A stretch of 64,000 bases of DNA, taken from Gemmatimonadota bacterium. Its GTDB lineage: Bacteria > Gemmatimonadota > Gemmatimonadetes > Gemmatimonadales > GWC2-71-9. The position numbers and the translations under genes are program-made. The notes under the pieces were generated by a model, which was given only the letters and a program-made list of their open reading frames with translations, did no database searches and was not told the DNA's origin. How positions within the stretch are numbered: the first letter of the stretch is position 1; every line of letters starts with the position of its first letter. Of the stretch, positions 3,033-61,137 are shown one piece after another. Location: positions 1,452-65,451 of the forward strand of contig JBGQLP010000006.1 in the NCBI GenBank assembly GCA_041500125.1, read 5' to 3'.

Positions 3033-3035
3033 TGC

Positions 3036-3551
3036 TTATCTCTCGGCTTCGCCTTCCCCGACGGCAGCGGCAGCTTCGTTGATGCCCGACTCACCCAGCT
3101 CGGTGAGCTTTCTGTCGGCCGCTTCCTCTTCTTCGAGAGTCTGCTGTAACAGCTGCTCGGCCTGGGAGTAGCCCAGGAGCTGGGCGTAGGTACGGAGACA
3201 GCCATAGGCGGCAATCTCGTAGTGCTCCACCCGCTGAGCGGAGGCGATCAGCGCGGCGTCGATCACGGCCGGCTCACCATCCTCCTCCAGCACCTCTTTA
3301 CCTTCCTCCAGCAGCCCTTCCATGCCTTTGCACTTCTTGCCCCTGGCGGCCTGACCCAGCTCCCGGAAAATTCTCTCCAGCCGCTGGACCTGCCCCTCGG
3401 TCTCCTTCAAGTGCTTGGTAAAGGCCTGCTTAAGTTCGGGCGACTCTGCCGTCTTGGCCATCTTGGGCAGCGCCCGCAGAATCTGCTTCTCAGCGTTATA
3501 GACGTCCTTGAGCTCTTCGAGAAAGAGCTTCTCCAGTGAATCAAGACTCAT
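3036..3551 (-). CDS. yciF: Ferritin-like DUF892 / YciE-YciF stress protein
   Basis: LKDVYNAEKQILRALPKMA, HLKETEGQVQRLE, CKGMEGL and AQRVEHYEIAAYG. Confidence 0.92.
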   Translation of the reverse strand: MSLDSLEKLFLEELKDVYNAEKQILRALPKMAKTAESPELKQAFTKHLKETEGQVQRLERIFRELGQAARGKKCKGMEGLLEEGKEVLEEDGEPAVIDAALIASAQRVEHYEIAAYGCLRTYAQLLGYSQAEQLLQQTLEEEEAADRKLTELGESGINEAAAAVGEGEAER

Positions 3552-5449: not shown

Positions 5450-5600
5450 CGTTCACTCCTTTGATCTGACCGTTCGCTACTATCCCTCCAGCCGCCGTGT
5501 TCCGGCGGACCTGAGCGATCATGATATTGCCGGTCTGGTCGAAACCGGCGAAATCGGCATGAGCCGCTTGAACGCACCCACAAGAAGCGATGGGATCACG

Positions 5601-5623
5601 TGTGATGCGGTGTCACAGATCAC
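5601..5623. promoter_or_regulatory. Possible operator: TGTGA-N7-TCACA overlapping GTGAT-N12-ATCAC
   Basis: Nested inverted repeats about 150 nt upstream of the stress operon. The spacer is one base longer than the CRP consensus. Confidence 0.25.
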
Positions 5624-5653
5624 GATTTGCTCGCTTTGCTCGGTCGCGACTAC

Positions 5654-5696
5654 AAAAGAACTGGGGCCCAAGGTCACAATCGACCTTGGGCCCCAG
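5654..5696 (-). terminator. Intrinsic terminator
   Basis: Perfect 15-bp stem CTGGGGCCCAAGGTC/GACCTTGGGCCCCAG, 6-nt loop, followed by TTCTTTT on the minus strand. Confidence 0.8.
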
Positions 5697-5735
5697 ACCT
5701 GACTTGGTCCGGAGTTGCCGGACCATACTCACCAG

Positions 5736-6083
5736 CTAGCGAGGACGACCGCGCGGTGACATTCTGTCCACTTCGAATTCACTCATCCGATCGGCGTCGA
5801 CATCGTGCTGACCGGTAATGCGGTGCCAGGCGTCGCGGACGGCACTCTTCATGCTTTCCCAGGTGCTGCCGGCGCCACGTCTTCCCTCGAACTTTTCCCA
5901 TCCGGACTTCAGGTCGGACTCTACCTCATCCCACTCGCGACCCATGTGATGCTGACCCGACTCGAACCCGTACTGATAGGCCGGACGAAAGTCATCGTAG
6001 TTGCGGCCGGTGGCGTAAGGCCTCGAGCTGAAATTGTTGCGCCACCAATTGTCCTCATCGTTCCAGGTTCTATTCTGCGTCAT
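5736..6083 (-). CDS. Conserved hypothetical Trp-rich small protein
   Basis: AAGGAGG RBS before ATG 6083; WWRNNFSSRPY...RPAYQYG...WDEVESDLKSGWE...VRDAWHR. Confidence 0.75.
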   Translation of the reverse strand: MTQNRTWNDEDNWWRNNFSSRPYATGRNYDDFRPAYQYGFESGQHHMGREWDEVESDLKSGWEKFEGRRGAGSTWESMKSAVRDAWHRITGQHDVDADRMSEFEVDRMSPRGRPR

Positions 6084-6167
6084 TCTTTCCTCCTTGGGAT
6101 CGGTGTCTACTTCCAAGGACCCGTAGAGTAGCAATGACGGTTTGAGAAGGTCGTGATCCTCGTCACG

Positions 6168-6884
6168 TCACGAAGGGTCAGCGAGGATCTGTTTCAGCTC
6201 TTGCGCCGCTGCTGGCCCGGTCGGACTCCCCTCCTCGTGCTTGAGGAAGACGTAAGCCTCGCTCCATGGCTGGCCCCGAATCCGCTTGCCCCATTGCTCC
6301 AGCGTGGAAACGTCATAGGACGACCGGCGCAGCCGGAGATAACCCCACGATGCCGTGGGCACGAGCGGCGACCCGGCTCCCTCGGCGTCATCCTCGTCAA
6401 CGGCTACGAGGGCGACGTCCCGGCCCCGGAGCAGCTGATACACCTCGTCATCGAACCAGGTAGGGTGGCGAAACTCCATCGCAGCCGGCCAGCGGCGGGG
6501 GAGCCGTCCCAGAAACTTCTGCAGCCGATTCAGGTCCTTCTTGAGTGTCGGAGGCAACTGAAAGAGGGTTGGACCCAGGCGCTCTCCCAGAGGATTCACC
6601 GCTCGAAGGAAGTAATCCAGCGAGCCGTCCTCGTCAGCCAGACGAGCGTTGTGAGTGATCCGCCTGGAGGCCTTGAGTACGAACCGGAACTGGTCCGGTA
6701 CCTGCTCTGCCCAGCTCGTCAAGACCCGCTCGTTCGGAATCCGATAGAACGAGTTGTTGACTTCCACGGTGGGGAACCGGGCGGCGTAGAAACGAAGCAT
6801 CTCCTCCGCCGGAAACTTCTCTGGGTAGAAGCTTCCTTTCCATTCTTTGTACGACCAGCCGCTGGTGCCGACGAGGATTCTCAG
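6168..6884 (-). CDS. DUF72-domain protein (probable CTG start)
   Basis: The conserved N-terminus RILVGTSGWSYKEWKGSFYP lies upstream of the track ATG and is preceded by an in-frame stop; also TVEVNNSFYRIP, KASRRITH, LFQLPP, EFRHPTW and YLRLR. Confidence 0.9.
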   Translation of the reverse strand: MRILVGTSGWSYKEWKGSFYPEKFPAEEMLRFYAARFPTVEVNNSFYRIPNERVLTSWAEQVPDQFRFVLKASRRITHNARLADEDGSLDYFLRAVNPLGERLGPTLFQLPPTLKKDLNRLQKFLGRLPRRWPAAMEFRHPTWFDDEVYQLLRGRDVALVAVDEDDAEGAGSPLVPTASWGYLRLRRSSYDVSTLEQWGKRIRGQPWSEAYVFLKHEEGSPTGPAAAQELKQILADPS

Positions 6885-7714
6885 ACTTCCCTACTCAACT
6901 GCTGATAGGACCTGAGATGGCGAAGGGCCGCCGACCGTCGGCCCATCTGCTCGTAGAGCCGAGCCAGGTTGAAATGCGCGTCGGCAAACTCGGGGTCGTC
7001 TCGGAGAACCCGGCGGTAGGCCTCGATGGCAGCGCCCCACTCACCCAGCTCCTCGAGCGCGGTGCCCAGATTGAAGGCCGCGGTGGGATCCATCCTGCCG
7101 GCCTCCAGCGAGCGGCGATAGTGATCGGCGGCCTCTGCGGTTCGTCCGGCCAGCTGAAGCAAGCGGCCCAGATTGACGTGGGCTTCGGTGAGTTCGGGCT
7201 CAAGAGCCAACGCCTTCGCGTAAGCGCTGCAGGCCTCCTCCGGAGCAGCGGCCTCGAGGTCGACGCCGAGATCGAACCATTCGGAGGCGGTCAACGCCGC
7301 AGTGGCCTGGCGAGCCGACCGGACAATCCTGCGCGCCACGGGACCGGCGCGCCGGGTGAGCTCGCGGACGGGGAAGTCGATCTGGAGCTGTCCGGATTCA
7401 GGGTTCCACGCTGTCCCCTCATCTCGCACCATCACTCGATGCCCCTCGGCAGTGATCCGGAGCTCACTGAGTGAGTGGCCTATCGGCAACAGTCGGGCGA
7501 GCCCCTGGAGTGCACTCCGGATCCGGCGGGGCGGTACCCGGGCCTGTGCCAGCTCGCGCGCAGTACGGAGGAGAACGAGATCCTGGAAGGAGAAGCGGTA
7601 GCCGTTGTGGGGCCCGCGGTCCGGGGTGAGGAATCCGGCCCGTGCCTGGGAGCGGACCTGGGGCTCGGACAGACCCAGCAGTCTGGCGACGTCGCGGGTC
7701 GAGTACGACTTCAT
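6881..7714 (-). CDS. MerR-type HTH plus tetratricopeptide-repeat protein
   Basis: YSTRDVARLLGLSEPQVR...YRFSFQDLVLLR; C-terminal TPRs (EAHVNLGRLL, TAAFNLGTALEELG, DAHFNLARLYE). Confidence 0.85.
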   Translation of the reverse strand: MKSYSTRDVARLLGLSEPQVRSQARAGFLTPDRGPHNGYRFSFQDLVLLRTARELAQARVPPRRIRSALQGLARLLPIGHSLSELRITAEGHRVMVRDEGTAWNPESGQLQIDFPVRELTRRAGPVARRIVRSARQATAALTASEWFDLGVDLEAAAPEEACSAYAKALALEPELTEAHVNLGRLLQLAGRTAEAADHYRRSLEAGRMDPTAAFNLGTALEELGEWGAAIEAYRRVLRDDPEFADAHFNLARLYEQMGRRSAALRHLRSYQQLSREV

Positions 7715-7756
7715 GAACTAAACAATGTACTACGGTGGGCGGGATGTCACCGCCTT

Positions 7757-8626
7757 CTACCCTCGTCCGCCGGCCTTCCGTTTCTTGGGGGCGGCGTCGG
7801 CTTCGTCCGCCTTGGCTCCGACCCGCTTGGCCGGCTTCTTCTCTTCAGTGCTGGTGCCCCGCTTGGCCAGGCTCGCTTTGAGCGCGTCCATCAGGTCGAT
7901 GATCTTGGTTTCCGTTGGAGCGGCTTCGGATGTGATCTCCTGGCCTTCCACTTTGTTCTGGATGGCTTCGAGCACCCGGTCCCGAACCGTGTCGTGGTAG
8001 TTCTCCGGCCGGAACTCGTCGGTCGCGGTTTGCTCGATCAGCTGCCGTGCCAGGGCCAGCTCGGCCTCCTTGACCGGCGTCTCCGGATGAGGCACCTCCG
8101 CCGCCGGCCGCAGCTCGGCAGCGTAGTGCAGCTGCTCCATGACCAGCACCCCGTCCAGCGGGCGCACCAAGACCAGATGCTGTTTGCCTCGGGCAGAGTA
8201 CTGGCCCAGCGCGGCACGGCCGGTGTCCTTCAACGCCTCGCCCAGTAACCGGTAGGCCCGATCGCCCCCCTTGTCGGGGCCGAGGTAATACACTTTCTCC
8301 AGATAGATCCGGTCGACCGCCGCGAGCGGCACGAATTCCACGATATCGATCGAGTTGGTGGCCTTCTCGTCGAGGGCCTTGATCTCTTCCGGCGTGAACA
8401 GCACGAACTGGCCTTTGGCGAATTCGTATCCCTTGGCAATGTCGTCCTTTTCGACCACCCCGCCTTCTTTGGGGCAGATGTATTGCTGCTTCAGCCGGGT
8501 GCCGCAGGCCTTATGCACCATGTTGAAACTGACCGTGGCGGACGATTCGCTGGCGGAGTAGAGAGACACCGGGACTGAGACCAGCCCGAACGAGATGGTT
8601 GCGGTTCCAATTGGACGTGGCGGCAT
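7757..8626 (-). CDS. ku: NHEJ DNA end-binding protein Ku
   Basis: TISFGLVSVPVSLYSA, KGYEFAKGQFV, IDIVEFVP, IYLEKVYYLGP, KIIDLMDALKASL and a basic tail. Confidence 0.96.
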   Translation of the reverse strand: MPPRPIGTATISFGLVSVPVSLYSASESSATVSFNMVHKACGTRLKQQYICPKEGGVVEKDDIAKGYEFAKGQFVLFTPEEIKALDEKATNSIDIVEFVPLAAVDRIYLEKVYYLGPDKGGDRAYRLLGEALKDTGRAALGQYSARGKQHLVLVRPLDGVLVMEQLHYAAELRPAAEVPHPETPVKEAELALARQLIEQTATDEFRPENYHDTVRDRVLEAIQNKVEGQEITSEAAPTETKIIDLMDALKASLAKRGTSTEEKKPAKRVGAKADEADAAPKKRKAGGRG

Positions 8627-8843
8627 ATGGTCCCATATATCCCGCAAATTGGAAGCCCGCAAGGACGGAGCCGTCCTCTGAGCACGGAACCATTTGCATG
8701 CCATTTGGTTGCTGGTTTGAGCCGGGACGGACCTGTCGCGCCGGCGCCTCACGCATCGCGCGGCTGGTCTTTCATTTCGTATAGTTTCATCGGGAGACCG
8801 ACGTCCTCTTTTCTCCGGCCGGATTCAGCGGCACTTTCCAGTC

Positions 8844-11414
8844 ATGCCTCCCCACAAGCCGGATCCTCTCGCCGAGTACCGGACGAAGCGCGCGCTCGAG
8901 CGCACCCCCGAGCCTGCAGGCGCTGTGGCCAACGAGAGCGCGGCGGCCGGCGGGCTGTTTGTGGTACACAAGCACGCGGCCCGGCGGCTCCATTTCGATC
9001 TCCGGCTGGAAATGGACGGCGTGCTCCGTTCCTGGGCGGTACCCAAAGGGCCTTCGTACGACACTGCGGATAAGCGCCTCGCGGTCCAGGTGGAGGATCA
9101 TCCCTTGGAGTACGGCGACTTCGAGGGCCTGATTCCGGAGGGGAACTACGGTGCCGGCGCCGTGATCGTATGGGATCGGGGCCGTTGGGTGCCGCTGGAA
9201 GATCCGGTCGAGGGACTTGCCAAGGGCAAGCTTCTGTTCGAGCTCCACGGGCTCAAGCTTCATGGTCGGTGGACTCTGGTAAAGCTCAAGAAAAGCGAGA
9301 AGGAATGGCTGTTCATCAAGGAGCGCGACGCCTACGCCACCTCCTCCGGCGCCATGCCGCCGGAGGAATCGGTGCTGTCCGGCCTGACGGTGGAGGATCT
9401 GAAAGCCGGCCGGACTCCGGTCGAGGGCATCCGGACCGAGCTGGCCAGCCTGGGTGCACCGAGGAAGGAAGTGAAGCCGGACACCGTGCAGCTCATGCTG
9501 GCCGAGCCGAGAGACCGTGCCTTCTCCGGGGCGGGGTGGCTATTCGAGCTCAAGCTCGATGGGTACCGGGTCTTGGCAGCGCGGGACGGCGCTCCCCGTC
9601 TCCTTTCTCGCAACGGCAATGACTTGTCCGCCACCTTCCCGGAGATAATCCGAGCGATCCGGGCGCTGCCGCTGGAGCGGTTGCTCCTCGATGGTGAGGT
9701 GGTGGCGCTCGACGAAAGTGGACGGCCCAGCTTCCAGCGGCTTCAGCAGCGGGGCCAGCTCCGCCGCCCGCTCGATATTCGCCACGCGGCGGTACAATAT
9801 CCGGTGACCTTCTTTGCCTTCGACCTTCTCGCCTTCGAGGATTTCGACCTGCGCCATCTCCCCCTTTCCACTCGGAAGGCGTTGCTCAAGCGGCTGCTTC
9901 CTTCGGCGGGGCTGATCCGCTATCTCGATCACTTCGAACAGGACGGGGAGGTGCTCTACGAGCAGATCCAGAAGCTCGGCTTGGAGGGGATCGTGGCCAA
10001 ACGGGCCGATTCGCCTTATCGGGCTGGCCGGTCAGCGGTCTGGCTCAAGATCCGCACCCGGCAGACGGATGATTTCGTGGTGGTTGGGTTCAGCGCCCCC
10101 AAGGGCAGTCGAAGCGGCTTCGGGGCGTTGTATCTGGGACAGTACGTGGACGGGGCGCTGACTTACACCGGCCGGGCCGGGAGCGGCTTCAGCGATGGCC
10201 AACTGACCCAGGTCCGGGCAATGCTCGAAGATTTGCGCCGATCCGATGCACCGTGCGCTGGACCCCTTCCCAAGGACAAGGAGACCAGTTGGGTAGAGCC
10301 GAGCCTCGTGTGCGAAGTGGAATACACCGAGTGGACTGAGGAGGGGTTGCTCCGCCAGCCGGTATTTCTCCGGTTTCGCGAGGACAAGAGACCGGAGGAG
10401 TGCGTGGGGGAATTGGCGCGGAGGGTAAGCGGGGAGGCGGGGAAACAGGGAAGCGCGAAAGCCAGCGAGTCGTCAGAGCAGTCGGACGATGGAGTCAAAG
10501 CACCTGGGCCGAAGCCCCGGGCCATTCCCCAGTCGATCGCTTATACCAATCTTCAGAAAGTATTCTGGCCCGACGATGGCTACACCAAGGGCGACCTAAT
10601 CGAATACTACCGGACCATTGCGCCTTGGATCCTCCCTTACCTAGCCGATCGTCCCGTGGTGCTCACTCGCTACCCCGACGGGATCGCTGGAAAGTCGTTC
10701 TTCCAGAAGGACGCACCCGGCTTCGTTCCTGACTGGATCCGCACCGAGCGGATGTGGAGCGAACAGGCCGAACGGGAGATCGATTACTTCGTGTGCGACG
10801 ACGAGGCCTCGCTGCTCTACCTAATCAATATGGGTACCATCCCGCTTCATGTCTGGGCCAGTCGCACCTCGAGCCTGGACCATCCCGATTGGTGCGTGCT
10901 CGATATCGATCCCAAGGAGGCGCCGTTCAGCGACGTGGTCCGGGTCGCCCAGGCCGCCCACCAGCTCTGCGAAGAGATCGGGCTTCCCAACATGGTGAAG
11001 AGCAGCGGCTCGTCCGGGCTTCATGTTCTGATCCCGCTCGGCGGCCAATGCCGCTATGCGGAGGCTCGCAGCCTGGGGGAGCTGCTGGCCCGCGTGATTT
11101 CCACTGAGCTGCCCGACCTCTCGACGCTGACCCGGCAGGTGTCTCGCCGTGGCGGCAAGGTGTATATCGACTATCTCCAAATAGGGGCAGGGCGCCTCAT
11201 CGTTGCTCCCTTCAGCGTGCGACCGCTCCCCGGCGCACCGGTCTCCACCCCGCTCCGGTGGAGCGAGGTGAATGAGAAACTCGACATTCGGAGCTTCACC
11301 ATCCGCAACATGGCGGCCCGCATGCAGAAGCTGAAACGAGATCCGCTCCGGGACGTGCTGAAGCTGAGCCCCGACCTGGGCGGAGCCTTGGAGCGTTTGA
11401 GCGCAAGGCTATGA
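8844..11414 (+). CDS. ligD: DNA ligase D (phosphoesterase-ligase-polymerase)
   Basis: PE domain HAARRLHFDLRLE/SWAVPKG/EDHPLEY; ligase KLDGYR, EGIVAKR, WLKIR; polymerase LDIDP, SGSSGLHV, APFSVRP. Confidence 0.97.
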   Translation: MPPHKPDPLAEYRTKRALERTPEPAGAVANESAAAGGLFVVHKHAARRLHFDLRLEMDGVLRSWAVPKGPSYDTADKRLAVQVEDHPLEYGDFEGLIPEGNYGAGAVIVWDRGRWVPLEDPVEGLAKGKLLFELHGLKLHGRWTLVKLKKSEKEWLFIKERDAYATSSGAMPPEESVLSGLTVEDLKAGRTPVEGIRTELASLGAPRKEVKPDTVQLMLAEPRDRAFSGAGWLFELKLDGYRVLAARDGAPRLLSRNGNDLSATFPEIIRAIRALPLERLLLDGEVVALDESGRPSFQRLQQRGQLRRPLDIRHAAVQYPVTFFAFDLLAFEDFDLRHLPLSTRKALLKRLLPSAGLIRYLDHFEQDGEVLYEQIQKLGLEGIVAKRADSPYRAGRSAVWLKIRTRQTDDFVVVGFSAPKGSRSGFGALYLGQYVDGALTYTGRAGSGFSDGQLTQVRAMLEDLRRSDAPCAGPLPKDKETSWVEPSLVCEVEYTEWTEEGLLRQPVFLRFREDKRPEECVGELARRVSGEAGKQGSAKASESSEQSDDGVKAPGPKPRAIPQSIAYTNLQKVFWPDDGYTKGDLIEYYRTIAPWILPYLADRPVVLTRYPDGIAGKSFFQKDAPGFVPDWIRTERMWSEQAEREIDYFVCDDEASLLYLINMGTIPLHVWASRTSSLDHPDWCVLDIDPKEAPFSDVVRVAQAAHQLCEEIGLPNMVKSSGSSGLHVLIPLGGQCRYAEARSLGELLARVISTELPDLSTLTRQVSRRGGKVYIDYLQIGAGRLIVAPFSVRPLPGAPVSTPLRWSEVNEKLDIRSFTIRNMAARMQKLKRDPLRDVLKLSPDLGGALERLSARL
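10421..10452 (+). repeat. 4 x 8-nt G-rich degenerate tandem repeat inside the ligD interdomain linker
   Basis: GAGGGTAA GCGGGGAG GCGGGGAA ACAGGGAA; four runs of at least G3 with 4-5 nt loops. Confidence 0.6.
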
Positions 11415-49950: not shown

Positions 49951-52002
49951 GTGATCCGTAACCGTGTCTACTTGGGGCTAGTTCTGATCGGGCTGTCGGC
50001 CGGAACAGCCGTGGGGCAGAGTGGTTCCCGAAAGATCACCCTCGACGATCTCTACCGCCTCCGCGAGGTCAGTAGCCCGGAGATCTCTCCCGAAGGCGAA
50101 TGGGTGGCGTACACGGTCTCGGTGCCCGACACCTCCAAGGACAAGTCGGACAGCGATGTCTGGATGACCAGCTGGGATGGTCGGCGCAGCGTGCGGCTCA
50201 CGACGAGCACGACCAGCGAGCACACGCCGCGATGGAGCCCCGACGGCCGATACCTCGCTTTTCTCTCCAGCCGGGAGGATGCCCGCGAGGTCGATCAAGT
50301 CTGGTTGCTGAACCGGACCGGCGGGGAGGCCGAAAAGGTCACTGATCTTCCGGGCGGTGTCTCGGACTACGCCTGGTCCCCAGACAGCAAGCGCTTGGCG
50401 CTCATCGCCCCCGATCCCGATCCGGACTCGGCCACCGTCACTCCCGACACCAGCCAGCGAACCCACCCTCCGATCGTCATCGACCGCTTCCAGTTCAAAG
50501 CCGATGAGACGGGATATCTCGGCAGGCGGCGGGACCATCTCTACCTCTTCGACTTGGCCGCCCGGAAGGCGCTACTGCTGACGCCGGGGGAATACAACGA
50601 GGAGGCGCCGGCCTGGTCGCCTGATGGCAAGAGCATCGCCTTTGTCAGCAAGCGTCGTCCGGAGTTCGACCGAACCGCCAATTGGGACCTATACGTCGTG
50701 GAGACGATTCCGGGCGCCACTCCCCGGCAGCTCACCACCTTCGAGGGGCCGGACAATGACCCCGATTGGGGAGGGCGGCCCCCCTCCTGGAGCCCGGACG
50801 GCAAGTCCATCGCCTACGTCCAAGGCGGACCGCTCAAGCTGCTCTACTACGCTGGACAGAAGGTCGCCGTGGTCCCCTCAGGCGGTGGTCCGGCCCGCGT
50901 GCTCACGGCGGCGCTGGACCGGAACCCGCTCTCGCCCACGCTCTCGAGTGACGGGGCATCGGTACTGTTCCTGCTCGAGGACGATCGGGTGACTCACCTT
51001 GCCCGGGTGCCGGTCTCCGGCGGACCGGTGGAGCGGTTGGTGGAGGGAAGGCGGGTCATCAGCGATTTCTCGGCCGGTCCGCGGGGCAAGATCGCGGTGC
51101 TCGCGAGCGCGCCTGCGCAACCGGCGGAGATCTTCGCGGTGGAGGGGAACCGGCTACGCCAGATCACCGGGCAGAACGACAAATGGCTCTCGGAGGTCCG
51201 CCTCGCACCGGTGGAAGAGATCGGCTTCAAGAGCAAGGATGGGACCGATATCCACGGCTTCATGGTCAAGCCCATCGACTACCGTCCGGGTCAGCGGTAT
51301 CCCACGATCCTCCGGATCCATGGGGGTCCGGTCTGGCAGTTCTATAACGACTTTGCCAACTTCGACTGGCAGCTCCTGGCCGCCAACGGCTATGTGGTCG
51401 TGGCAGCGAATCCTCGTGGCAGCTCTGGGCGGGGCGAGAAGTTCTCGACGGCCATCTGGGCCGACTGGGGGAACAAGGACGGGCAAGACGTGCTCGCCGC
51501 GGTGGATTTTGCGGTCGCGCAGGGGATAGCGGATCCCAATCGGTTGGGAGTCGGGGGCTGGAGCTACGGCGGTATCCTCACCGACCAAGTCATAACGCGC
51601 GATCAGCGCTTCAAGGCGGCCATCAGCGGCGCGGGCCTCGCCAATGCTCTGGCCGGGTACGGTACCGATCAGTATGTCCGCGAATACGAGGCCGAGCTGG
51701 GCACCCCCTGGCAGAACACCGCGGCCTACCTGAGGGTCTCGTATCCCTTCCTCCATGCCGACCGGATCGTGACTCCGACGCTGTTCCTCTGCGGGGAGAA
51801 GGACTTCAACGTCCCCCTGCTCAACTCCGAGCAGATGTACCAGGCGCTGAGGAGTCTCGGACGGGAGACCCAGCTGGTCATCTATCCGGGGGAGTACCAT
51901 GACATCCGAAAGCCGAGCTATCGGCGCGACCGGCTGCAGCGATACGTCGACTGGTATGACCGCCACCTCAAGACTCAGCCGGGCGACGCGGCGACTCATT
52001 GA
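49951..52002 (+). CDS. S9 family peptidase (beta-propeller plus catalytic domain)
   Basis: WSPDG repeats, IHGGP, NPRGSSGRG, GWSYG, GEKD and YPGEYH. Confidence 0.94.
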   Translation: MIRNRVYLGLVLIGLSAGTAVGQSGSRKITLDDLYRLREVSSPEISPEGEWVAYTVSVPDTSKDKSDSDVWMTSWDGRRSVRLTTSTTSEHTPRWSPDGRYLAFLSSREDAREVDQVWLLNRTGGEAEKVTDLPGGVSDYAWSPDSKRLALIAPDPDPDSATVTPDTSQRTHPPIVIDRFQFKADETGYLGRRRDHLYLFDLAARKALLLTPGEYNEEAPAWSPDGKSIAFVSKRRPEFDRTANWDLYVVETIPGATPRQLTTFEGPDNDPDWGGRPPSWSPDGKSIAYVQGGPLKLLYYAGQKVAVVPSGGGPARVLTAALDRNPLSPTLSSDGASVLFLLEDDRVTHLARVPVSGGPVERLVEGRRVISDFSAGPRGKIAVLASAPAQPAEIFAVEGNRLRQITGQNDKWLSEVRLAPVEEIGFKSKDGTDIHGFMVKPIDYRPGQRYPTILRIHGGPVWQFYNDFANFDWQLLAANGYVVVAANPRGSSGRGEKFSTAIWADWGNKDGQDVLAAVDFAVAQGIADPNRLGVGGWSYGGILTDQVITRDQRFKAAISGAGLANALAGYGTDQYVREYEAELGTPWQNTAAYLRVSYPFLHADRIVTPTLFLCGEKDFNVPLLNSEQMYQALRSLGRETQLVIYPGEYHDIRKPSYRRDRLQRYVDWYDRHLKTQPGDAATH

Positions 52003-52387
52003 CGCCCCGCGGAGATCAGCCCTTACCGCTCTCCTGGTCCTATGCTCGGTCAGCTGTGCCGGACATTCGGGGAAATCGAGTGCCCCTCCACCCGAAGCAC
52101 CTAGCGAGATCGTGCTGGTGGTGGAGAACCATCACTGGAACGACGTGGTGGTGTCGGTACTGCATGACGGGGTGGTGGACCGGGTGGGACTCGCAACCGC
52201 GGTGACGACATCGACCTTTGTTCTTCCCAGCCGCCGACTCGGGACGTCAGGCATCATCCGGCTCCGGGGGCACGCAGTCGGAGCTCCGGACGACCACACC
52301 ACCGACGCCATTCCGGTTCAGCCGGGACAAGAAATCCAGTGGACGCTGGAGAGCGATCTGGCGCGCTCCAGCGTCGCGGTTCACTGA
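51998..52387 (+). CDS. Uncharacterised lipoprotein (paralog of 57315-57701); start ambiguous
   Basis: Lipobox VSC; ENHHWND...PGQEIQWTLESDL..SS. No ATG near the signal peptide; options are ATT 51998 or ATG 51956. Confidence 0.7.
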   Translation: MDAPRRSALTALLVLCSVSCAGHSGKSSAPPPEAPSEIVLVVENHHWNDVVVSVLHDGVVDRVGLATAVTTSTFVLPSRRLGTSGIIRLRGHAVGAPDDHTTDAIPVQPGQEIQWTLESDLARSSVAVH

Positions 52388-52388
52388 A

Positions 52389-53750
52389 TCACGGACAGGG
52401 GTTGGGGTCGTTCCAGTTCTGCAGCGGCCCGCCATCGGGAATGCTGGGGTTCGCATTGCGCTCGCTCAGCGGATAGGCCAAGCGCGCCGGGATGGACGTC
52501 GATCCGGATGCCGGGGTCAGGGCCGGAAGACAAGTTCTCCGGTAATCGCTCCAGACCTCGGGGTTCTGGAACAGTCGGATGTACTTCTCGGTCATGATGG
52601 CCTGGAGCAAGGCGGCACCGCCGACTCCGCCGCCGATCGGACCCAGGCCGGCATCGGCACGAACCGCATTCAGGCTGGTGCGGGCGGTGCCATCGTCGCC
52701 CGTCCGGTTGGCAGCTTCCGCCATGATGAGCTGGTTCTCGGCCCAAGTTGCCAGGGGCTGGCGGAAGCTAGGGTCGAGATGGATTGAGCTCAGTGATGAG
52801 GGGGAAGCCCCGACATCGACATCATCACCCGGGTTGGCGCCGACGAAATTGCCGGCGCCATTGGGCCCGAAGTACTCGCTCAGCCGAGGATCGGCGGTGC
52901 TTTGCAGAAGATCCACCAAAGCTTTCCCGGCGGACAGATAATCCGGCCATGAGGTAGTAAACTGGGCGTAGAGGTTGGTCTCGGTGGAGGCGCTACTATG
53001 GTAGGCCAGATAATCGCCCGACGGGTCCGCAATGCCGTTTGCGGCCGCCGCCAGTGCCGCTGCATACGCCGGAACTCCGAGGAGTTCGGCAGTATGCAGG
53101 TAGTATCGAGCCTTGAGGGTGTTGGCTAACGCCGTCCATTTTGCCAGATCTCCGCCATAGACCAGATCCTCACCGCCGGGTGGATGAGCACCTGGACTAC
53201 TCGCGTTCAGCGACGCGATCGCCTCATCGAGCTTGGACTCCAATGCGGCGTAGACCTGCTGCTGCGGATCCAGGACAGGCGCCGCCACCGTGGAGTCGGC
53301 CGCCTGGGAATAGGGTACATCGCCCCAGACATCAGCCGCGGTTCCGACCAGCCAGGCCTCGAGTACCTTGGCCACGCCGGCATAGGCGGAATCGTTGGTA
53401 GCGAGCGCCTGACGCTGGAGGAGACGGAGATCGACCAGACCGCCGTTATCGTAGACGTTGTACCAGGAGAAGATATAGTCGTCGTCGCCGACGATGTATT
53501 TCCCGAGGCTATTGTACTGCAGCCGGGTGCCGGCGCACTGCTGCATCCAGATGCAGATGGTACGCCCCAAATGGCCTTCGAGGAAAAACGCCAGGTCGGT
53601 CTGGGACGCGACCAGCAGATTAGCGTTGGTGGCGGTGACCGGACGATTCGGGTTGTCGGAGAGCTTGGGGCCGGTGAGAAAATCCCCACAGCCGCAGAGT
53701 CCCAGGCCGGCCCCGAGAGTGAGCAGCGCCGTCGTGAAACGGTTGCGCAT
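52389..53750 (-). CDS. susD: SusD/RagB family lipoprotein
   Basis: Lipobox LCGC; DNPNRP, WGDVPYSQA, DLVYGGD..KW..LANTLKARY, IMTEKY, WSDYRRT and PARLAYP. Confidence 0.92.
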   Translation of the reverse strand: MRNRFTTALLTLGAGLGLCGCGDFLTGPKLSDNPNRPVTATNANLLVASQTDLAFFLEGHLGRTICIWMQQCAGTRLQYNSLGKYIVGDDDYIFSWYNVYDNGGLVDLRLLQRQALATNDSAYAGVAKVLEAWLVGTAADVWGDVPYSQAADSTVAAPVLDPQQQVYAALESKLDEAIASLNASSPGAHPPGGEDLVYGGDLAKWTALANTLKARYYLHTAELLGVPAYAAALAAAANGIADPSGDYLAYHSSASTETNLYAQFTTSWPDYLSAGKALVDLLQSTADPRLSEYFGPNGAGNFVGANPGDDVDVGASPSSLSSIHLDPSFRQPLATWAENQLIMAEAANRTGDDGTARTSLNAVRADAGLGPIGGGVGGAALLQAIMTEKYIRLFQNPEVWSDYRRTCLPALTPASGSTSIPARLAYPLSERNANPSIPDGGPLQNWNDPNPCP

Positions 53751-53779
53751 GGCAGAAACCTCGAGTGATCGGGTGGGCA

Positions 53780-56700
53780 TCAGCGGTTCATGGTGACGGA
53801 GAATACGAACGACCGCGTCTGGGGATTGTTGAACCAGTCGATTCCCCGGGCACCGGTATCGGCGCCGGACAGGCTAGTCTCCGGGTCGGCGCCGGTATAA
53901 GGTGTCCAGACCGCCAGATTGCGGCCGGCAACCCGGAGGTCCATGCTGCTGAGCCCCAGCGCCCGACTCACGAAGCCACCCGTCAGGGTATAGCCCACCG
54001 AGACCTCGCGCAGCTTCACAAAGCTGGCGCTCTCGTAAAATGGCTGGCCCAGAAAGGTGAAGGTGCTGTAGTAATTCTGGAACCAGTTCTGGTCCAGCAC
54101 CGCACTGGTTCCCACCCCGGGTCCCGCCACCGCGCCCTTCAAGAAGTCCTGACCGAAGACGACTGACTTGCCACGGAGGTCGCCCGATTCCTTCGACGTG
54201 CCGATAGCGTTGAGCGCACCCCGGGTGCCGTTGTAGACCAGGCCGCCGTGGCGGATGTCGAGCAGACCGGACACCGAGATTTTGCCGAACCGGAGGCCGC
54301 TGCGGATCGACCCGGTCCACTTGGGGTTGGGATCGCCGATGATGCGGCTGTTCGGATCGAGCAGGGGATAGCCGGCACCGGCGCCGGCATCGAGGCCGGT
54401 ATTGGAGTAATTGCCATCGTTGATGAACAGGGCCTGCTTGCTGTTTGCGTCGGCCCCGCAGAGGGCGTCCACGCTTACCTCATTGGAGGCCGGGTCCAGA
54501 ACGGTGATGCCTCGACCGCAGCGTATGTAGTCGTAGTCCCTGAAAGCCCCCACCGGCTGGCCTACTTCGGCCACCGAGATGGCAAACCCGCCTACGCCCC
54601 CATAGTTCACGAACTGAGCGCCGGCCAGACTGACCACCCGATTCCGATTGGTGGAGAACAGGAAGCCGAGATCCCAGGAGAAGTCGCGCTTGGTGATCGG
54701 GCGGAGGTTGAGCGACCACTCGGTGCCGGCATTGCGAATTTCGGCGCCATTGCTCGCGGCGTTGATGAATCCGGTGGTCGCGGGCACCGGCAGGGTCAGG
54801 ATCACATCCTTTGAGGTGCGCCGGTACCAGGTGAAGCTCAGGTCGGCCACGTCATTGAAGAGCCCGAGGTCGGTGCCCAGCTCCAGCTCACGGGTCCGTT
54901 CCGGCTTGAGCTGAGTGGCGCGAGTCGTATCGCTGAAGAGCCCGCCGAATCCGTTCTGGGAAGCGGTCAACGTTGCCCCCCACCCGTCCTGGAACGTTCC
55001 ACCGCTCAGGAAGCTGAACACGGTCAGGTACGGATTGGGCTGCGTCCCCACCTCCCCATATGCCGCGCGGAGTTTACCGTAGGTGAGCTTACCACCCAGG
55101 TCTCCGGTTTGCCGGGTGAATTCCCAGGCGACACTTCCACTGGGATACCAGCTGCGGAGCTTGTCCTGGGCGAAGGTCGAGGCGCCGTCATAGCGCACGC
55201 CGGCCTTGAGGAAGAGCTGGTCGGAGATGTCGAGCGTGGCCTGTCCGAAGTAGCCTTCGATCCGGACCTTGGTCTCGTTGTCGATCGGGGGAAGCTGACT
55301 TGCGGTGTTAGTGAGGGTGAAAGGCTCAGGGGCGAGCAGGGCGTTGCCCACCCCGCCGATCTCACGCAGGCTGCGGGTATTGAGATTCTGACCCAGGGTG
55401 ATCGATCCAGCCAGACTCTGGCCCAGCTTGTACGTGGCGGTACCGGTCAGATTGTGATCCACCTGCTGGTTCACGATGTTGACCTTGACTACCTGGCCCA
55501 GGATGCTCGGAGTATTGGATGAGGTTTGAGGTTGTCCCTGCAGCCGGTCATCGCCCGAATAGTCGATGCCCAAGGTGTAGTTGAAGCGGAGCCATCCGAC
55601 CGGCACATAATCGAGGCTCACGTTGCCAAATACCCGGTCGGCAATGGCGGTGCTGACCGGCACGTTGGCACTGAAAAACGGGTTGTCATAGCCGCGGGTA
55701 CTGTCGGAGGACGAGGCCGACGGATTGGGGAACCGGTACGAGCGGTGCATCCCGGTCGCCGGGTCGAGATAGATCCGATTGTCAAATTCGGGCGGGGTAC
55801 GCCAAGACCCCAGCGTCAGAGCGCTGAAGTTGCTTCCCTTCTGGACAAACCGGCCATCGCTGTTGGAGTAGGCAACATTACCCCCAATGGTGAAGTTGTC
55901 TCTCACCCGCTGAGAGCCCTTCAAGCGAAAGGAGTAGCGTTTATAGGCGTTTTGCGGCCCCACAAATGTGCCGTCTTGGTTGGTGTAGGAACCGGACAGG
56001 TAGAACAGGGTGCGATCATTTCCGCCGGCAATGGTGAGAGTGTTGTCGGTCGCAACGCCGGTGGTGAACATCTCTCGTGCGTGGTCGAACGTCGCAGTGC
56101 CAGCAGCGAGTGCCGGTCCCCAACTATCGCCGGTGCCGCCACAATCGGTCGCCCCGCCGAGCACACAGGTCTCGGCAGTAGGGACACCAAGGGTGTCCGC
56201 GTCGCCCTGGCCGTAGATCCGCTGGAGGGCGGGAAACCGGTGGACATCATTCACCGACAGCGAGGAGCTGAGCGAGTAGGTGGTGGGTCCCGCGTGCCCC
56301 CGCTTCGTGGTAATGAGGATGACGCCCTGCCCGGCACGCGCACCGTAGAGGGAGCCGGCCGCCGCGCCCTTGAGGATCTCGACCGACTCGATGTCGGCTG
56401 GATTGAGGTCCGAGGCGCGGTTGGACGAGGCGGTGCCCTGTTGACCGCCGAAGCCGGTGCCGTCAAACGTCGTCGTGGTTACGGTGGAGTTGTCGATGGG
56501 GACTCCATCCACCACAAACAGCGGTTCGCCGGTACTCCCCAGTGTGTTGGCTCCCCGAATCCGTATCGACGTCGAGGCTCCAGGGTCGCCCGAGGTGGAG
56601 GTCACCTCCACATTCGGCGCCTTGGCGGACAGCGCAGTCACAATGTTGGTCTCGTTGCTCCGGTTGATGAGCGATGAGTCGACACTGTTCCGCACACTGC

Positions 56701-57088
56701 CGAGCTTCTCCACCTCGGAGACGGTGCCCGCGCCGGTGACCACGATTTCTCCCAACTGGAGCGGATTGGCGGCAAGACCGAAGTCCTGGACCACTCCACC
56801 GGGGGAAATCGTGATCTCGGCGGTCTGCGGCTTGAACCCGATCGCTCTTACCATGAGCGTCGCCGGCTGCCCCTCCTGATCGGCCGGCACCAGCAGCCCA
56901 TAACTGCCGTCGGGCCGCGAGGTGGTGCTGACGCGCAGGGAAGGGATGGAAACGGTGGCTCCGGCAAGCGGTGCGCCCTCTTCGCTCTTCACATGTCCGG
57001 TGACGGTGACGGGCTGTTGGGCCACGCCGGAGCTTGCCAGTCCGACGAGAGCGATGACGGCAATCAGAATCTGACGACGGTTGAGCAC
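53780..57088 (-). CDS. susC: SusC/RagA family TonB-linked outer-membrane protein
   Basis: CarboxypepD-like N-domain, EIVVTG, SGDPGAS..IRIRG, PLFVVDGVP, DIESVEILKGAAA.SLYGARA..GVILITTK, LKPERT.E and PQTRSF. Confidence 0.95.
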   Translation of the reverse strand: MLNRRQILIAVIALVGLASSGVAQQPVTVTGHVKSEEGAPLAGATVSIPSLRVSTTSRPDGSYGLLVPADQEGQPATLMVRAIGFKPQTAEITISPGGVVQDFGLAANPLQLGEIVVTGAGTVSEVEKLGSVRNSVDSSLINRSNETNIVTALSAKAPNVEVTSTSGDPGASTSIRIRGANTLGSTGEPLFVVDGVPIDNSTVTTTTFDGTGFGGQQGTASSNRASDLNPADIESVEILKGAAAGSLYGARAGQGVILITTKRGHAGPTTYSLSSSLSVNDVHRFPALQRIYGQGDADTLGVPTAETCVLGGATDCGGTGDSWGPALAAGTATFDHAREMFTTGVATDNTLTIAGGNDRTLFYLSGSYTNQDGTFVGPQNAYKRYSFRLKGSQRVRDNFTIGGNVAYSNSDGRFVQKGSNFSALTLGSWRTPPEFDNRIYLDPATGMHRSYRFPNPSASSSDSTRGYDNPFFSANVPVSTAIADRVFGNVSLDYVPVGWLRFNYTLGIDYSGDDRLQGQPQTSSNTPSILGQVVKVNIVNQQVDHNLTGTATYKLGQSLAGSITLGQNLNTRSLREIGGVGNALLAPEPFTLTNTASQLPPIDNETKVRIEGYFGQATLDISDQLFLKAGVRYDGASTFAQDKLRSWYPSGSVAWEFTRQTGDLGGKLTYGKLRAAYGEVGTQPNPYLTVFSFLSGGTFQDGWGATLTASQNGFGGLFSDTTRATQLKPERTRELELGTDLGLFNDVADLSFTWYRRTSKDVILTLPVPATTGFINAASNGAEIRNAGTEWSLNLRPITKRDFSWDLGFLFSTNRNRVVSLAGAQFVNYGGVGGFAISVAEVGQPVGAFRDYDYIRCGRGITVLDPASNEVSVDALCGADANSKQALFINDGNYSNTGLDAGAGAGYPLLDPNSRIIGDPNPKWTGSIRSGLRFGKISVSGLLDIRHGGLVYNGTRGALNAIGTSKESGDLRGKSVVFGQDFLKGAVAGPGVGTSAVLDQNWFQNYYSTFTFLGQPFYESASFVKLREVSVGYTLTGGFVSRALGLSSMDLRVAGRNLAVWTPYTGADPETSLSGADTGARGIDWFNNPQTRSFVFSVTMNR

Positions 57089-57314
57089 GATTCGTTCTCC
57101 ATACCTGGCTGGGAACGTGCTAGGTCCTTCGGGGCGGTAACCGATGGATGTTTCGAATTGTCACAAGGGATGCGGCGCGACCGTACTCCTTCATGGGCCG
57201 CGGTCTCGCAGATTGTACGGCGTCTACCTGGAGGCGTCAATAGAGTGAGCACGTGCCTATTTGAGCGGGCGGCCCGGCAGGTATCTTGTCTACAGGCGCT
57301 TTCGAGGTAAGCCT

Positions 57315-57701
57315 ATGCGCGCCCTTCGCCTCGCGCTCGCTTTCGTGCTCATAGCCACCTGCCCTGGCTGCGGTCTCCTCTCGTCCCGCCATACTGATCG
57401 TTCAGACCCGGCAGCACGGGGTCTGGTCATGGTTTCGGTCGAGAGTCACAACTGGAATGACATCACGGTCTATCTCATGGCCGGCGGCCTTCCGCAGCGG
57501 CTAGGGATGGTCACCGCGTTGAGTAGCGCCACTTTTGACTTTCCGTCTCATCGGCTCAACACCAGCGGTGGTGTGCGGCTGCGAGCTCTTCCCGTCGCCG
57601 GGCGACCGTTCACCAGCGAGACGATTCTGGTGATGCCGGGTCAGGTCATCACCTGGACGCTGGAGAATGACCTGAATACCTCCAGCTTCTCAGTGTACTG
57701 A
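57315..57701 (+). CDS. Uncharacterised lipoprotein (paralog of 51998-52387)
   Basis: Lipobox PGC; ESHNWND...PGQVITWTLENDL..SS. Confidence 0.78.
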   Translation: MRALRLALAFVLIATCPGCGLLSSRHTDRSDPAARGLVMVSVESHNWNDITVYLMAGGLPQRLGMVTALSSATFDFPSHRLNTSGGVRLRALPVAGRPFTSETILVMPGQVITWTLENDLNTSSFSVY

Positions 57702-57725
57702 CGTCCTGACAGCGCTTTCCCGCTA

Positions 57726-57801
57726 TTGACACCTTTCCTCTTTCCGCGCACGTTTGCCGGGGCTGCCTCCGGCGCCCCTGTTTCCTTCCTCTCTCTATAA
57801 T
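57726..57801 (+). promoter_or_regulatory. Promoter region with TTGACA (57726-31) and TATAAT (57796-801)
   Basis: Both perfect hexamers are present but too far apart to be one promoter; a pyrimidine tract lies between them. Confidence 0.3.
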
Positions 57802-57878
57802 CCGCACACCGGTACGCCCGAGCTGGCGTACCCTGGTCTCGCACCGGGTGACGGTTGGCCGCTCGCATCGAGGTTTAC

Positions 57879-58337
57879 ATGCATCTGACTCGTTTGCTTC
57901 GCGTTGGCGTCATTATCGCCGCTAATCTCGTCGCCACAGCAGTGGTTGCGCAGGAAAGCCAGCTCAGCGGTCGGGTGACCGACGAGCGCACTGGCGACGG
58001 GATCGCTGGCACGCGAGTGCTGTTGACGGGCACGCTCGGCATTCTGAACGCCTTACGAGCCGGCGCTGGGCTCGCGGACACGACCGACCCGGGGACCCCG
58101 GCAGGGCGAGTCGATCTGCTGTTTCGGGAGCGGGCGTTCTGGTTGTTCGCCACCGGGCACCGATTGGGTGACCTGCGCCGGCTGGTACGTCAGTATGGCC
58201 GTGCGGCGGACGCGGTGTTTCCCAGCGGGCTCTACTTCAAGGGCGGGCTGACGTACGGCCCCGGGGTGAACCTGCCCCTCCCTGCCACCGAGACGAACAA
58301 CCCCAAGGTGACCGGGTGCCTCGACCGAAACGCGTGA
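57879..58337 (+). pseudogene. In-frame chimera of a SusC-type N-terminus and a SusD-type C-terminus (deletion scar or misassembly)
   Basis: Signal peptide plus SGRVTDERTGDGIAGTRVLLTGT, joined near 58032-58040 to LNALRA...LFRERAFWLFATGHRLGDLRRLVRQY...CLDRNA. Confidence 0.8.
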
Positions 58338-58359
58338 AGTCCACTCCAAAGGAGGTCCT

Positions 58360-61137
58360 ATGATACGACCCGTCGTCCGGATGATCCTGGGCCTCCTGCT
58401 GCTGCTCCCGGCAACACTCGCGGCTCAGACCGGCACTCTACGCGGGAGCGTCGCGGACAGCAGCCGCACCCCGCTTGCTAACGTCTCTGTCATCGTCGAG
58501 GGGACCGGGCTCAGGGCCACGTCCGGCGCCGGGGGAGAGTACGTAATCCGGGGGGTGCCGGCAGGAACCCGCATGGTGCGTGCCCGTCTCATCGGCTTCC
58601 AGGCTGCCAGTGCGTCCGTCACGGTGGTGGCGGGAGACGTGGTGCGTCAGGATTTCACCCTCGGTCGCAGCGCCGTGGAGTTGGCTCCCATCGACGTGGT
58701 CGTAGGTAGCCGCGCCCGGCACACTGCAGCCGAGGAACTTGCGGTCCCGGTAGACGTCTACACCTCTCAGGACATCCAGGAGCAGGGCACCACCGAAACC
58801 AGCCAGGTCCTCGCGACGCTCTCGCCGTCGGTGAACTTTCCCCACCAGACGGTGACCGACGCGAACGATATCGTGCGCCCGTTCACGATGCGTGGCCTCT
58901 CTCCCGACCACACGCTGGTGCTGGTGAATGGCTGGCGCCGCCATCAGACGGCACTGCTCAATACCTTCCCGCTCGGGTCCCCGGCGGGGTCCAGTGGTGT
59001 CGATCTCAACGCCATCCCCGGAAGTGCCATCGAGCGAATCGAAGTGCTACGGGATGGCGCCTCCTCTCAGTACGGCTCCGACGCAATCGCGGGTGTGGTC
59101 AACATCGTGATGAAGGAGGGGCAGTTCTCGCCCTTCGTGAATACCAGTGCCGGACGATACTTTACCGGCAAGTACCCGGACGACGGCACCACGGCGGACG
59201 TGAACGGTGGGGTGGGCATCAAGCTGGGGCGGGGCTCTCTGGGACTCTTCGGCGAGTTCCAGAACCGCGAGCCTACCAACCGTGCATTTCCGGACGGCAC
59301 TCTGCAGGATCTGAACGGCATCACCGACGTCGTCGACACGGTCACCGGCCGAATCATCCAGAAGCGCAACGGAGTCCCTCAACCGGTCAATCACCTCGGC
59401 GATGGCCTCGAGCGGGATTTACTGTCGTTCGCTAACCTTCGGATGCCGCTGACCGCGAGCGGAGCCACCGAGTTTTACGCCTTCGGCGGCTTCAGCAACC
59501 GAGTCGGCACCGGCAATGGTTACTACCGCAAGCCCCTCAACAACCGTAACTGGCCGACGATCTACCCCAATGGGTTCCTGCCGGAATTCCGTCCCAATGT
59601 GAACGACTTCTCGGGTGCGGTTGGAATCCGCAGCAACCTTTCAGGATGGTCCGCTGACCTTGGGGCTATCTACGGCAAAAACACCTTCGATTACCGGTTG
59701 CGCAACACCCTCAACCCGTCGCTGGGCCCCTGCCTGGTTACCGCCTGTGCACCGGGTGCGGACGGCGTCCTCGGCACTGCCGACGACCCGGGTATTCCTA
59801 ACCAGACCAGCTTCGACGCCGGCGGCCTGAGACGCGGGGAGTTCCTCGTAGGCCTCAACCTGGCCAAGCCGATCAGCCTCGGCCTGCCGAACCCCGTCAG
59901 CGTAGCCTTTGGCGGAGTATATCGTCGGGAGACGTACAAGATCGTTGCGGGCGAGACGGCCTCCTGGATCAACGGTGGTCACTTATCCCAGGACAGCGTG
60001 GCCACTCCCGGAGATCTTGCGCCCGCGGGCTCATCGGTCTTCTCCGGCTTCTCCCCTTCCGACGCCAGCGACAACTCACGGAACAACGTGGGTGCCTATC
60101 TCGACCTCGAGTCGAACCTCACCCAACAAGTGCTCTTGAACATCGCCGGCCGCTACGAGCACTACAGCGACTTTGGCTCACGGGTTACCGGCAAGGCGGC
60201 GGTCCGGGTTCAGCCGAGCAAGCAGCTGGTCATCCGCGGCGCGGCCAGCACCGGCTTCCGTGCTCCTGGGCTGGCGCAGAGCTGGTTCAGCCACGTCACT
60301 ACGAACTTCATTGCAGGCAGCCTGGTCGAGGTGGGCAATTTCCCGGTGACCAACCGGGCATCGCGGATCTTCGGAGCCCAGCCCCTGAGAGACGAGACAT
60401 CGGTAAACCTCAGTGGCGGCGTGGTGTTTTCCCCAATGGACAACTTCACGCTCGCGGTGGACGTCTTCCACATCAAGATCAACCATCGCATTCTGCTCGG
60501 CGCCACCTACGACGCGGGCGACAGCGTGGTCGCTCGGATCCTGGCCGATTCCGGGTTGACCGCGATCGGTGCTGTGCAGTTCCCTACCAACGCACTGGAC
60601 ACCAAGACCAACGGTATCGACCTGACCGGGGATCTCCGACTTCCCGTGGGGAATGGCACGCTGGACCTCAATGCCGGTGTCAACTACACCAAGAATACGA
60701 TCGCTCGTGTGGGAGGCCTCCCGCCGATCCTGCAGGGCACCGGGACAAGCTTCACCGGCGCTCTCGACCTGCTGACGACGCTGGCCATCACCAGGGAGCG
60801 TCCAGACTGGCGGGGTACCCTAACGGCAAACTGGTCTCTCGGTCGCTTCCACGCGCTGGGACGCGGGAACTACTATGGCTCGGGAAGGTCAGCCGAATTC
60901 GGCGGTGTTGTTGGAGAGACGTTTGTCGGCAAGACTCTGTTCGATGCCGAGGTGGGATACCGCTTTAACCAGGTCAATCTCTCGATCGGGGCCAAGAACC
61001 TGTTCGACACATATCCGTCCAGGATGCTCGATCTCGACAACAACAACAATTGGACTTTCCCCTGGGCGGTGACCTCGCCCTTCGGCTACAACGGCCGGTA
61101 TCTCTACGTCAGATCGGAGATGCAGCTGGGTCAATAG
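58360..61137 (+). CDS. TonB-dependent receptor with CarboxypepD-like N-domain
   Basis: VVVGSR, PVDV, RGLSPDHTLVLVNG.RRH, AIERIEVLRDGASSQYGSDAIAGVVNI and GAKNLFDTYP. Confidence 0.94.
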   Translation: MIRPVVRMILGLLLLLPATLAAQTGTLRGSVADSSRTPLANVSVIVEGTGLRATSGAGGEYVIRGVPAGTRMVRARLIGFQAASASVTVVAGDVVRQDFTLGRSAVELAPIDVVVGSRARHTAAEELAVPVDVYTSQDIQEQGTTETSQVLATLSPSVNFPHQTVTDANDIVRPFTMRGLSPDHTLVLVNGWRRHQTALLNTFPLGSPAGSSGVDLNAIPGSAIERIEVLRDGASSQYGSDAIAGVVNIVMKEGQFSPFVNTSAGRYFTGKYPDDGTTADVNGGVGIKLGRGSLGLFGEFQNREPTNRAFPDGTLQDLNGITDVVDTVTGRIIQKRNGVPQPVNHLGDGLERDLLSFANLRMPLTASGATEFYAFGGFSNRVGTGNGYYRKPLNNRNWPTIYPNGFLPEFRPNVNDFSGAVGIRSNLSGWSADLGAIYGKNTFDYRLRNTLNPSLGPCLVTACAPGADGVLGTADDPGIPNQTSFDAGGLRRGEFLVGLNLAKPISLGLPNPVSVAFGGVYRRETYKIVAGETASWINGGHLSQDSVATPGDLAPAGSSVFSGFSPSDASDNSRNNVGAYLDLESNLTQQVLLNIAGRYEHYSDFGSRVTGKAAVRVQPSKQLVIRGAASTGFRAPGLAQSWFSHVTTNFIAGSLVEVGNFPVTNRASRIFGAQPLRDETSVNLSGGVVFSPMDNFTLAVDVFHIKINHRILLGATYDAGDSVVARILADSGLTAIGAVQFPTNALDTKTNGIDLTGDLRLPVGNGTLDLNAGVNYTKNTIARVGGLPPILQGTGTSFTGALDLLTTLAITRERPDWRGTLTANWSLGRFHALGRGNYYGSGRSAEFGGVVGETFVGKTLFDAEVGYRFNQVNLSIGAKNLFDTYPSRMLDLDNNNNWTFPWAVTSPFGYNGRYLYVRSEMQLGQ

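Follow-up and report, generated by a model that had tools for sequence, protein, structure and literature searches.

SusC and SusD (RagA and RagB) form outer-membrane nutrient-uptake pairs that are the hallmark of polysaccharide utilisation loci (PULs). A full SusC comprises an N-terminal extension, a plug, a 22-strand barrel and the TIGR04057 signature. During bacterial gene loss, microhomology-mediated deletions leave chimeric ORFs or pseudogene remnants behind. Tandem susCD genes have been reported before in Gemmatimonadetes (PULDB paper, PMC5753385). The stretch of DNA analysed here (64,000 nucleotides as a whole; hereafter the window) contains an intact susC-susD pair and, close to it, a 152-codon ORF that joins the beginning of a susC to the end of a susD. 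We consider it very probable that this ORF is the scar of one recent 3,980-bp microhomology-mediated deletion and that its product is most likely an inert relic. The features of the locus, in window coordinates, are as follows.

52389-57088, minus strand: intact divergent pair of susC (1102 aa; TIGR04056, 518 bits) and susD (463 aa; Pfam SusD-like_2)
57261-57701, plus strand: putative lipoprotein of 146 aa, the left edge of the variable slot, conserved in G008, G023 and L050 (all introduced below)
57702-57878, plus strand: intergenic region and 5' leader that survive from the former susC, with ~95% identity to the sequence ahead of susC in G008
57726-57754, plus strand: putative promoter-like motif TTGACA-N17-CACGTT, read from the sequence
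57870-57873, plus strand: ribosome-binding site GAGG ahead of the ATG of the scar ORF
57879-58337, plus strand: chimeric ORF (susC'-'susD) encoding protein P0001 of 152 aa, with an ATG start and a TGA stop at 58335-58337
57879-58033, plus strand: susC-derived piece, codons 1-52, encoding a signal-peptide-like N-terminus and the first ~25 residues of CarboxypepD_reg
58029-58033, plus strand: microhomology GGCAC at the junction, found in both susC and susD of G008
58034-58337, plus strand: susD-derived piece, the last ~101 codons and the stop, matching the C-terminus of the G008 SusD
58338-58359, plus strand: spacer of 22 nt with the ribosome-binding site AAAGGAGG at 58348-58355, nearly identical in G008
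58360-61137, plus strand: TonB-dependent receptor of 925 aa with Pfam CarboxypepD_reg, Plug and beta-barrel matches

The two-part make-up of P0001 is evident from its comparison with a genome of the same genus, Gemmatimonadales bacterium SMAG_U4280 (contig C60, DASYIX010000060.1; hereafter G008). In protein alignments, residues 1-52 of P0001 are identical to residues 1-52 of the G008 SusC at 43 of 52 positions, and residues 51-152 are identical to residues 359-460 of the G008 SusD at 99 of 102 positions. The N-terminus is built like a signal peptide, in which a basic n-region is followed by VGVIIAANLVATAVV as the hydrophobic stretch and then by AQE. Across the junction the protein reads RVLLTG-T followed by LGILNALRAG, and the junction-spanning peptide is ...VLLTGTLGILNALR... 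A preliminary description of this DNA had proposed a signal peptide and a CarboxypepD-like start followed in one frame by a SusD C-terminus, and the G008 alignments bear this out. An alternative TTG start at 57855 would extend the ORF to a 160-aa version. Pfam detects CarboxypepD_reg (PF13620) at residues 28-50 (profile positions 1-22 of 82; E 0.025; 15.3 bits, below the cut-off of 32.3) and SusD_RagB (PF07980) at residues 55-101 (profile positions 184-233 of 297; E 0.026; 14.6 bits, below the cut-off of 23.1), the two matches abutting one another. Because these matches alone are sub-threshold, it is the comparison with the intact G008 genes that makes the chimera certain. P0001 has no match in NCBIfam, so it is not a member of the SusC/RagA family TIGR04056; it contains no complete CarboxypepD_reg domain (a beta-sandwich of ~82 residues) above the gathering threshold; and in place of a complete SusD fold (a TPR-like helical core of ~450 residues) it keeps only the counterpart of residues 359-460 of 460. 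With 52 of 1019 SusC residues and 102 of 460 SusD residues retained, neither plug nor barrel remains, and four-fifths of the SusD fold is gone. P0001 cannot transport or bind substrate, as it has no plug, barrel or complete ligand-binding fold.

The intact version of the locus was identified by a six-frame search of 41 related genomes. In G008, residues 50-152 of P0001 match the end of a 460-aa frame with 96% identity, whereas residues 1-52 match the start of a frame ~4 kb upstream, the product of which, counted from the aligned ATG, is 1019 aa long. The G008 gene order (162-aa gene, susD, susC encoding 1102 aa, 146-aa gene, the pair of susC encoding 1019 aa and susD encoding 460 aa, TonB-dependent receptor, oxidoreductase) is collinear with that of the window, and both halves of the scar match the ends of adjacent intact genes. 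The genes flanking the pair in G008 compare with their window counterparts as follows.

162-aa gene: position and length as in the window
neighbouring SusD (~462 aa): 88% identical to the window protein
neighbouring SusC (1102 aa): 91% identical to the window protein
146-aa lipoprotein: 88% identical to the window protein
TonB-dependent receptor: 63% identical to the window protein
FAD oxidoreductase: 96% identical to the window protein

The deleted genes were a genuine susC-susD pair, because the 1019-aa G008 SusC matches both TIGR04056 (432 bits against a cut-off of 368) and the TIGR04057 signature, and because its SusD partner matches SusD/RagB structures only. Sequence matches of this SusD are weak (PF07980 with E 0.0046, below the cut-off of that model, and PDB 3jq1 with E 0.0013), and PF07980 is matched by nine of the 12 members of this SusD family. 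Its AlphaFold model, built from a 22-sequence alignment (pLDDT 75.6, pTM 0.81), was compared with the PDB using Foldseek: the top 50 matches were all SusD/RagB proteins, the best being 3jq1_A (E 1.3e-9), and the TM-scores against PDB SusD/RagB structures were 0.5-0.63. The deleted genes resemble described SusC/SusD pairs in that a gene for a SusD-fold lipoprotein follows susC with a 4-nt overlap. They differ in that the SusD proteins of this clade are very divergent in sequence, and the scar ORF itself differs from any such pair in having neither plug nor barrel. The neighbouring pair at 52389-57088 was untouched by the deletion. That intact pair is bracketed by two paralogous small putative lipoproteins of 162 aa (51899-52387) and 146 aa (57261-57701), neither of which belongs to a Pfam family; the 146-aa protein is 73% identical to its counterpart in G023.

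DNA alignment to G008 locates the junction precisely. Homology to susC runs from the upstream intergenic region through 58033, and homology to susD starts at 58029, passes the stop codon and ends ~75 nt inside the following gene; the switch from susC to susD sequence, which the preliminary description had put at about 58035, was thus right to within a few bases. When three independently assembled contigs (X1, X2 and X3, described below) were aligned to the intact G008 locus (L014), there was a single joint only, from 5516 to 9497, which skips 3980 bases and leaves five letters that fit both sides. These five letters, GGCAC, encode a Gly-Thr common to SusC and SusD and sit inside a looser 15-nt similarity (10 of 15 bases). 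The microhomology is deduced from G008 (~93% DNA identity), which is a relative and not the true ancestor. The earlier reading that a multi-kb in-frame deletion had removed most of susC and susD proved correct, and the check suggested with it, aligning the two halves to an intact relative, did reveal microhomology.

Illegitimate recombination at the shared GGCAC would account for the whole event as a single 3,980-bp deletion that took out susC codons 53-1019 and susD codons 1-358. In G008, susC and susD overlap by 4 nt and therefore lie in different frames. Because of this offset, a deletion of 3,980 bp, which is 3n+2, happens to restore one continuous frame; a random joint leaves an open frame in one case out of three. 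In its single clean joint, its five shared nucleotides, its purely internal loss and its intact flanks, the event is like other microhomology-mediated deletions. Nothing essential differs, the only particular being that the joint is in frame across genes of different frames. This is an ordinary gene-loss event, unusually clean and with parallel cases, and it reveals no new mechanism.

The preliminary description had kept misassembly as the alternative, and we weighed it with contigs assembled from eight sediment-metagenome runs from different samples, some of which may be the source sample of the window assembly. Contigs from six of the eight runs cross 58029-58033 without differences at the junction. 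The contigs are listed here by run.

X1: junction-crossing contig of 11.5 kb
X2: junction-crossing contig of 1,992 nt
X3: junction-crossing contig of 748 nt
X4: junction-crossing contig of 742 nt
X6: junction-crossing contig of 357 nt, at ~3x depth
X7: junction-crossing contig of 245 nt
X8: contig that stops 6 nt beyond the junction

In the runs examined, none of the contigs that are at least 95% identical to the window diverges at the junction. Two SNPs, 58038 G>A and 58153 C>T, set the X6 contig apart; therefore, a slightly different strain carries the same deletion. A metagenome assembler might have fused the start of susC to the end of susD while the real genome kept the intact pair, and this deserved consideration, since the source is a metagenome-assembled genome of 155 contigs and paralogous susC and susD genes, which can confuse assemblers, lie close by. 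However, the same junction occurs in independently built contigs from six runs, including the 11.5-kb contig and the SNP-bearing X6. Furthermore, the sequence common to the two sides is a mere 5 nt, well short of the k-mers that any assembler uses, and too little to make a k-mer assembler collapse 4 kb. We regard an artefact as next to impossible, and with the contigs X1, X2, X3, X4, X6 and X7 spanning the junction, the misassembly alternative is ruled out; the spanning that the preliminary description had sought from reads was established here with assembled contigs of six runs. The deletion is fixed in the sampled population as represented by assembled contigs, which drop rare variants, so that a rare intact allele could be missed.

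The window is not the only place where a pair of this kind has collapsed. In Gemmatimonadales bacterium cluster3_bin.52 (JBDTUV010000045.1; L050), the corresponding slot is collapsed at 2968-3459 within a neighbourhood like that of the window: a susC of the 1102-aa type, the 146-aa gene, the remnant and a receptor of the window's type. There, susC extends to about codon 109, so that the whole CarboxypepD_reg domain is kept (Pfam E 2.4e-16), and susD resumes from the 'RERAFW' motif with a frame offset of one base; the remnant contains a stop codon. Another chimera, this one in frame, is the 211-aa protein P0032 (L015 3289-3924; GCA_046725585.1, JBKOYV010000148.1), which runs from a signal peptide through a whole CarboxypepD_reg domain to a SusD C-terminus; its context differs, as ilvD, ilvB and ilvC genes follow and there is no receptor. 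All three cases join the 5' end of a susC to the 3' end of a susD, whereas their junctions differ, and both L050 and P0032 keep the whole CarboxypepD_reg domain that is cut in the window. Judged from these sequences, the L050 collapse is independent of that in the window although it occurred at the same locus, and susCD pairs of this order have been lost repeatedly through large internal deletions. The L050 remnant is out of frame and yet stands directly before the same receptor gene; thus, the locus can persist with a broken frame. In G023 (contig C147), another member of the genus, neither a susCD pair nor a remnant is present between the 146-aa gene and the receptor; the spacer there (L018 2699-2902) is a 200-nt intergenic region with its own TTGACG-N17-TATTTA motif. 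The idea that G023 lost this pair completely gains no support, as the intergenic region aligns unconvincingly with the susC upstream region; the state seen there may be ancestral or derived.

An intact frame with a retained ribosome-binding site and signal peptide could also belong to a genuine small secreted family that combines a SusC N-terminus with a SusD C-terminus and has a function of its own. We consider this highly improbable. A word-indexed protein search gave 468 matches, nearly all of them SusD C-terminal fragments (short contigs and truncated gene calls). A HMMER scan of 1.84 billion representative proteins gave 1,145 matches, and the best 150 of these are overwhelmingly proteins of 430-500 aa that match only query residues ~50-152, at their C-terminus. 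The six-frame search of the 41 related genomes returned nothing for residues 1-152 together apart from the window's own ORF, and neither these relatives nor the two protein databases contain both halves with this junction. Thus, the widespread full-length homologs that, according to the preliminary description, would speak against a deletion are absent from both the word-indexed and the HMMER results. A second in-frame susC'-'susD chimera is known in P0032; however, its junction and context are different, which marks it as an accident of its own that is not homologous to the fusion, and the collapse in L050 is out of frame. All invariant SusD residues of the retained piece are preserved in P0001, which speaks for such a family; on the other hand, in the SusD model the retained 102 residues appear as a few helices and an irregular tail, not as a self-contained domain, and this piece is unlikely to fold alone.

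The reading of P0001 as a deletion scar leaves the question of its product and its age. If made, the protein would be exported, as its N-terminus suggests, and it is probably a non-functional, inert relic. The remnant shows no decay: it has no frameshift, no stop codon and no lost invariant residue, and a by-eye comparison of P0001 with alignment A7 found every family-invariant residue of the retained SusD piece in place. Such absence of decay is also expected under continued constraint. In the N-terminal 52 residues, with L050 as the outgroup, three changes fall on the window lineage and four on that of G008, and two are ambiguous. Because the invariant residues are intact and the N-terminal changes are split about evenly between the two lineages, we infer that the deletion is recent relative to the split from G008 (~7% DNA divergence). 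It would nevertheless predate the divergence of the X6 strain. The two SNPs of the ~3x X6 contig both lie in the remnant and are nonsynonymous, G54S and T92I, the latter at a family-invariant Thr; these two changes give a weak hint of relaxed constraint on the remnant.

The regions on both sides of the scar ORF bear on what the deletion did to the neighbouring genes. That the upstream region and the ribosome-binding site were kept, as stated in the preliminary description, is confirmed by the presence of GAGG and by the identity to G008 given above. Within this region, G008 shares the motif blocks CTATTGACACC and CGCACGTTTGCC with the window, and even the distant L050 retains them amid diverged sequence; the blocks may represent a promoter or operator of the former susC. 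A plus-strand scan for the sigma-70 consensus made no call upstream of the ORF (the motif at 57726-57754 included) or inside the susD remnant, and a comparison of the whole window with Rfam gave no family above threshold, which leaves the leader without a match to a riboswitch or other known RNA. None of the RNA runs that were checked contains this part of the window. Terminator-like sites were called inside the scar ORF at 58115-58134 (plus strand) and 58316-58302 (minus strand), a count that is not above chance.

The receptor gene that follows is now ~480 bp from the old susC upstream region. Because the scan called no promoter-like or terminator-like site in the 22-nt spacer between the scar stop codon and the receptor ATG, the receptor operon is probably transcribed by read-through from the old susC upstream region, across the scar as a 459-nt leader ORF. 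The receptor is not a member of the SusC family (TIGR04056, 46 bits against a cut-off of 368). It is 63% identical to its G008 counterpart (L014 2395-5190, minus strand), whereas the flanking genes are 88-96% identical, and it is 83-84% identical to the receptors of G016, G017, G023 and G011. Because of this difference, and because similarity to G008 stops ~75 nt into the receptor gene, the comparison points to recombination that swapped the body of the receptor in one lineage, and to two long-standing receptor types within the genus. In G016, a homologous susCD pair is divergent from the receptor. The locus is a rearrangement hotspot.

The proximity of the receptor raises the question of whether the deletion was selected. 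The preliminary description tied the intact frame to continued expression of the downstream receptor; the frame is indeed intact, but the supposed purpose is weakened by L050, where the frame is broken. A selective explanation would hold that the deletion was favoured for putting the receptor operon under the susC upstream region, with the in-frame leader avoiding polarity. The receptor does start 22-37 nt after susD or the remnant in the window, G008 and L050, and the spacer without a called site of either kind fits this explanation; in L050, however, the frame is not open, so that polarity avoidance by an open frame is not required, and in G023 the 200-nt intergenic region ahead of the receptor is a different one and contains no remnant. 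The susC upstream motif and the 3' end of susD survive in both independent collapses, but any deletion within two dispensable genes leaves the same flanks, and L050 came from a search that could retrieve only sequences with the 3' end of susD, which is an ascertainment bias. Selected rewiring of this type is, in our judgement, quite unlikely. We also think it unlikely that the collapse is adaptive in a broader sense, whether through a slot that repeatedly sheds susCD, retains the upstream region of susC and the 3' end of susD, and thereby places the receptor/oxidoreductase/Rieske-oxygenase operon under the control of a substrate-responsive susC promoter, the chimera serving as a translated leader, or through a role gained by the exported 152-aa chimera.

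The scar shows a transporter pair disappearing by a single deletion, caught before decay of the remnant. For the biology it says no more than that, of two uptake systems side by side, a soil or sediment Gemmatimonadales species has dropped one. For annotation, this means that short 'hypothetical' ORFs with sub-threshold CarboxypepD_reg and SusD matches can be deletion scars, and such scars should stay uncounted as SusC/SusD genes in PUL predictions.

A protein from bacterium HR33, P0020, was considered as another fusion and rejected, because it represents the C-terminal part of a susD that is split and preceded by an intact susC. At that locus (L016 6961-8363; BEIJ01000002.1), an intact susC encoding 1013 aa is followed by a susD homologue split into pieces of 260 aa and 120 aa, which is either a frameshifted pseudogene or a sequencing error.
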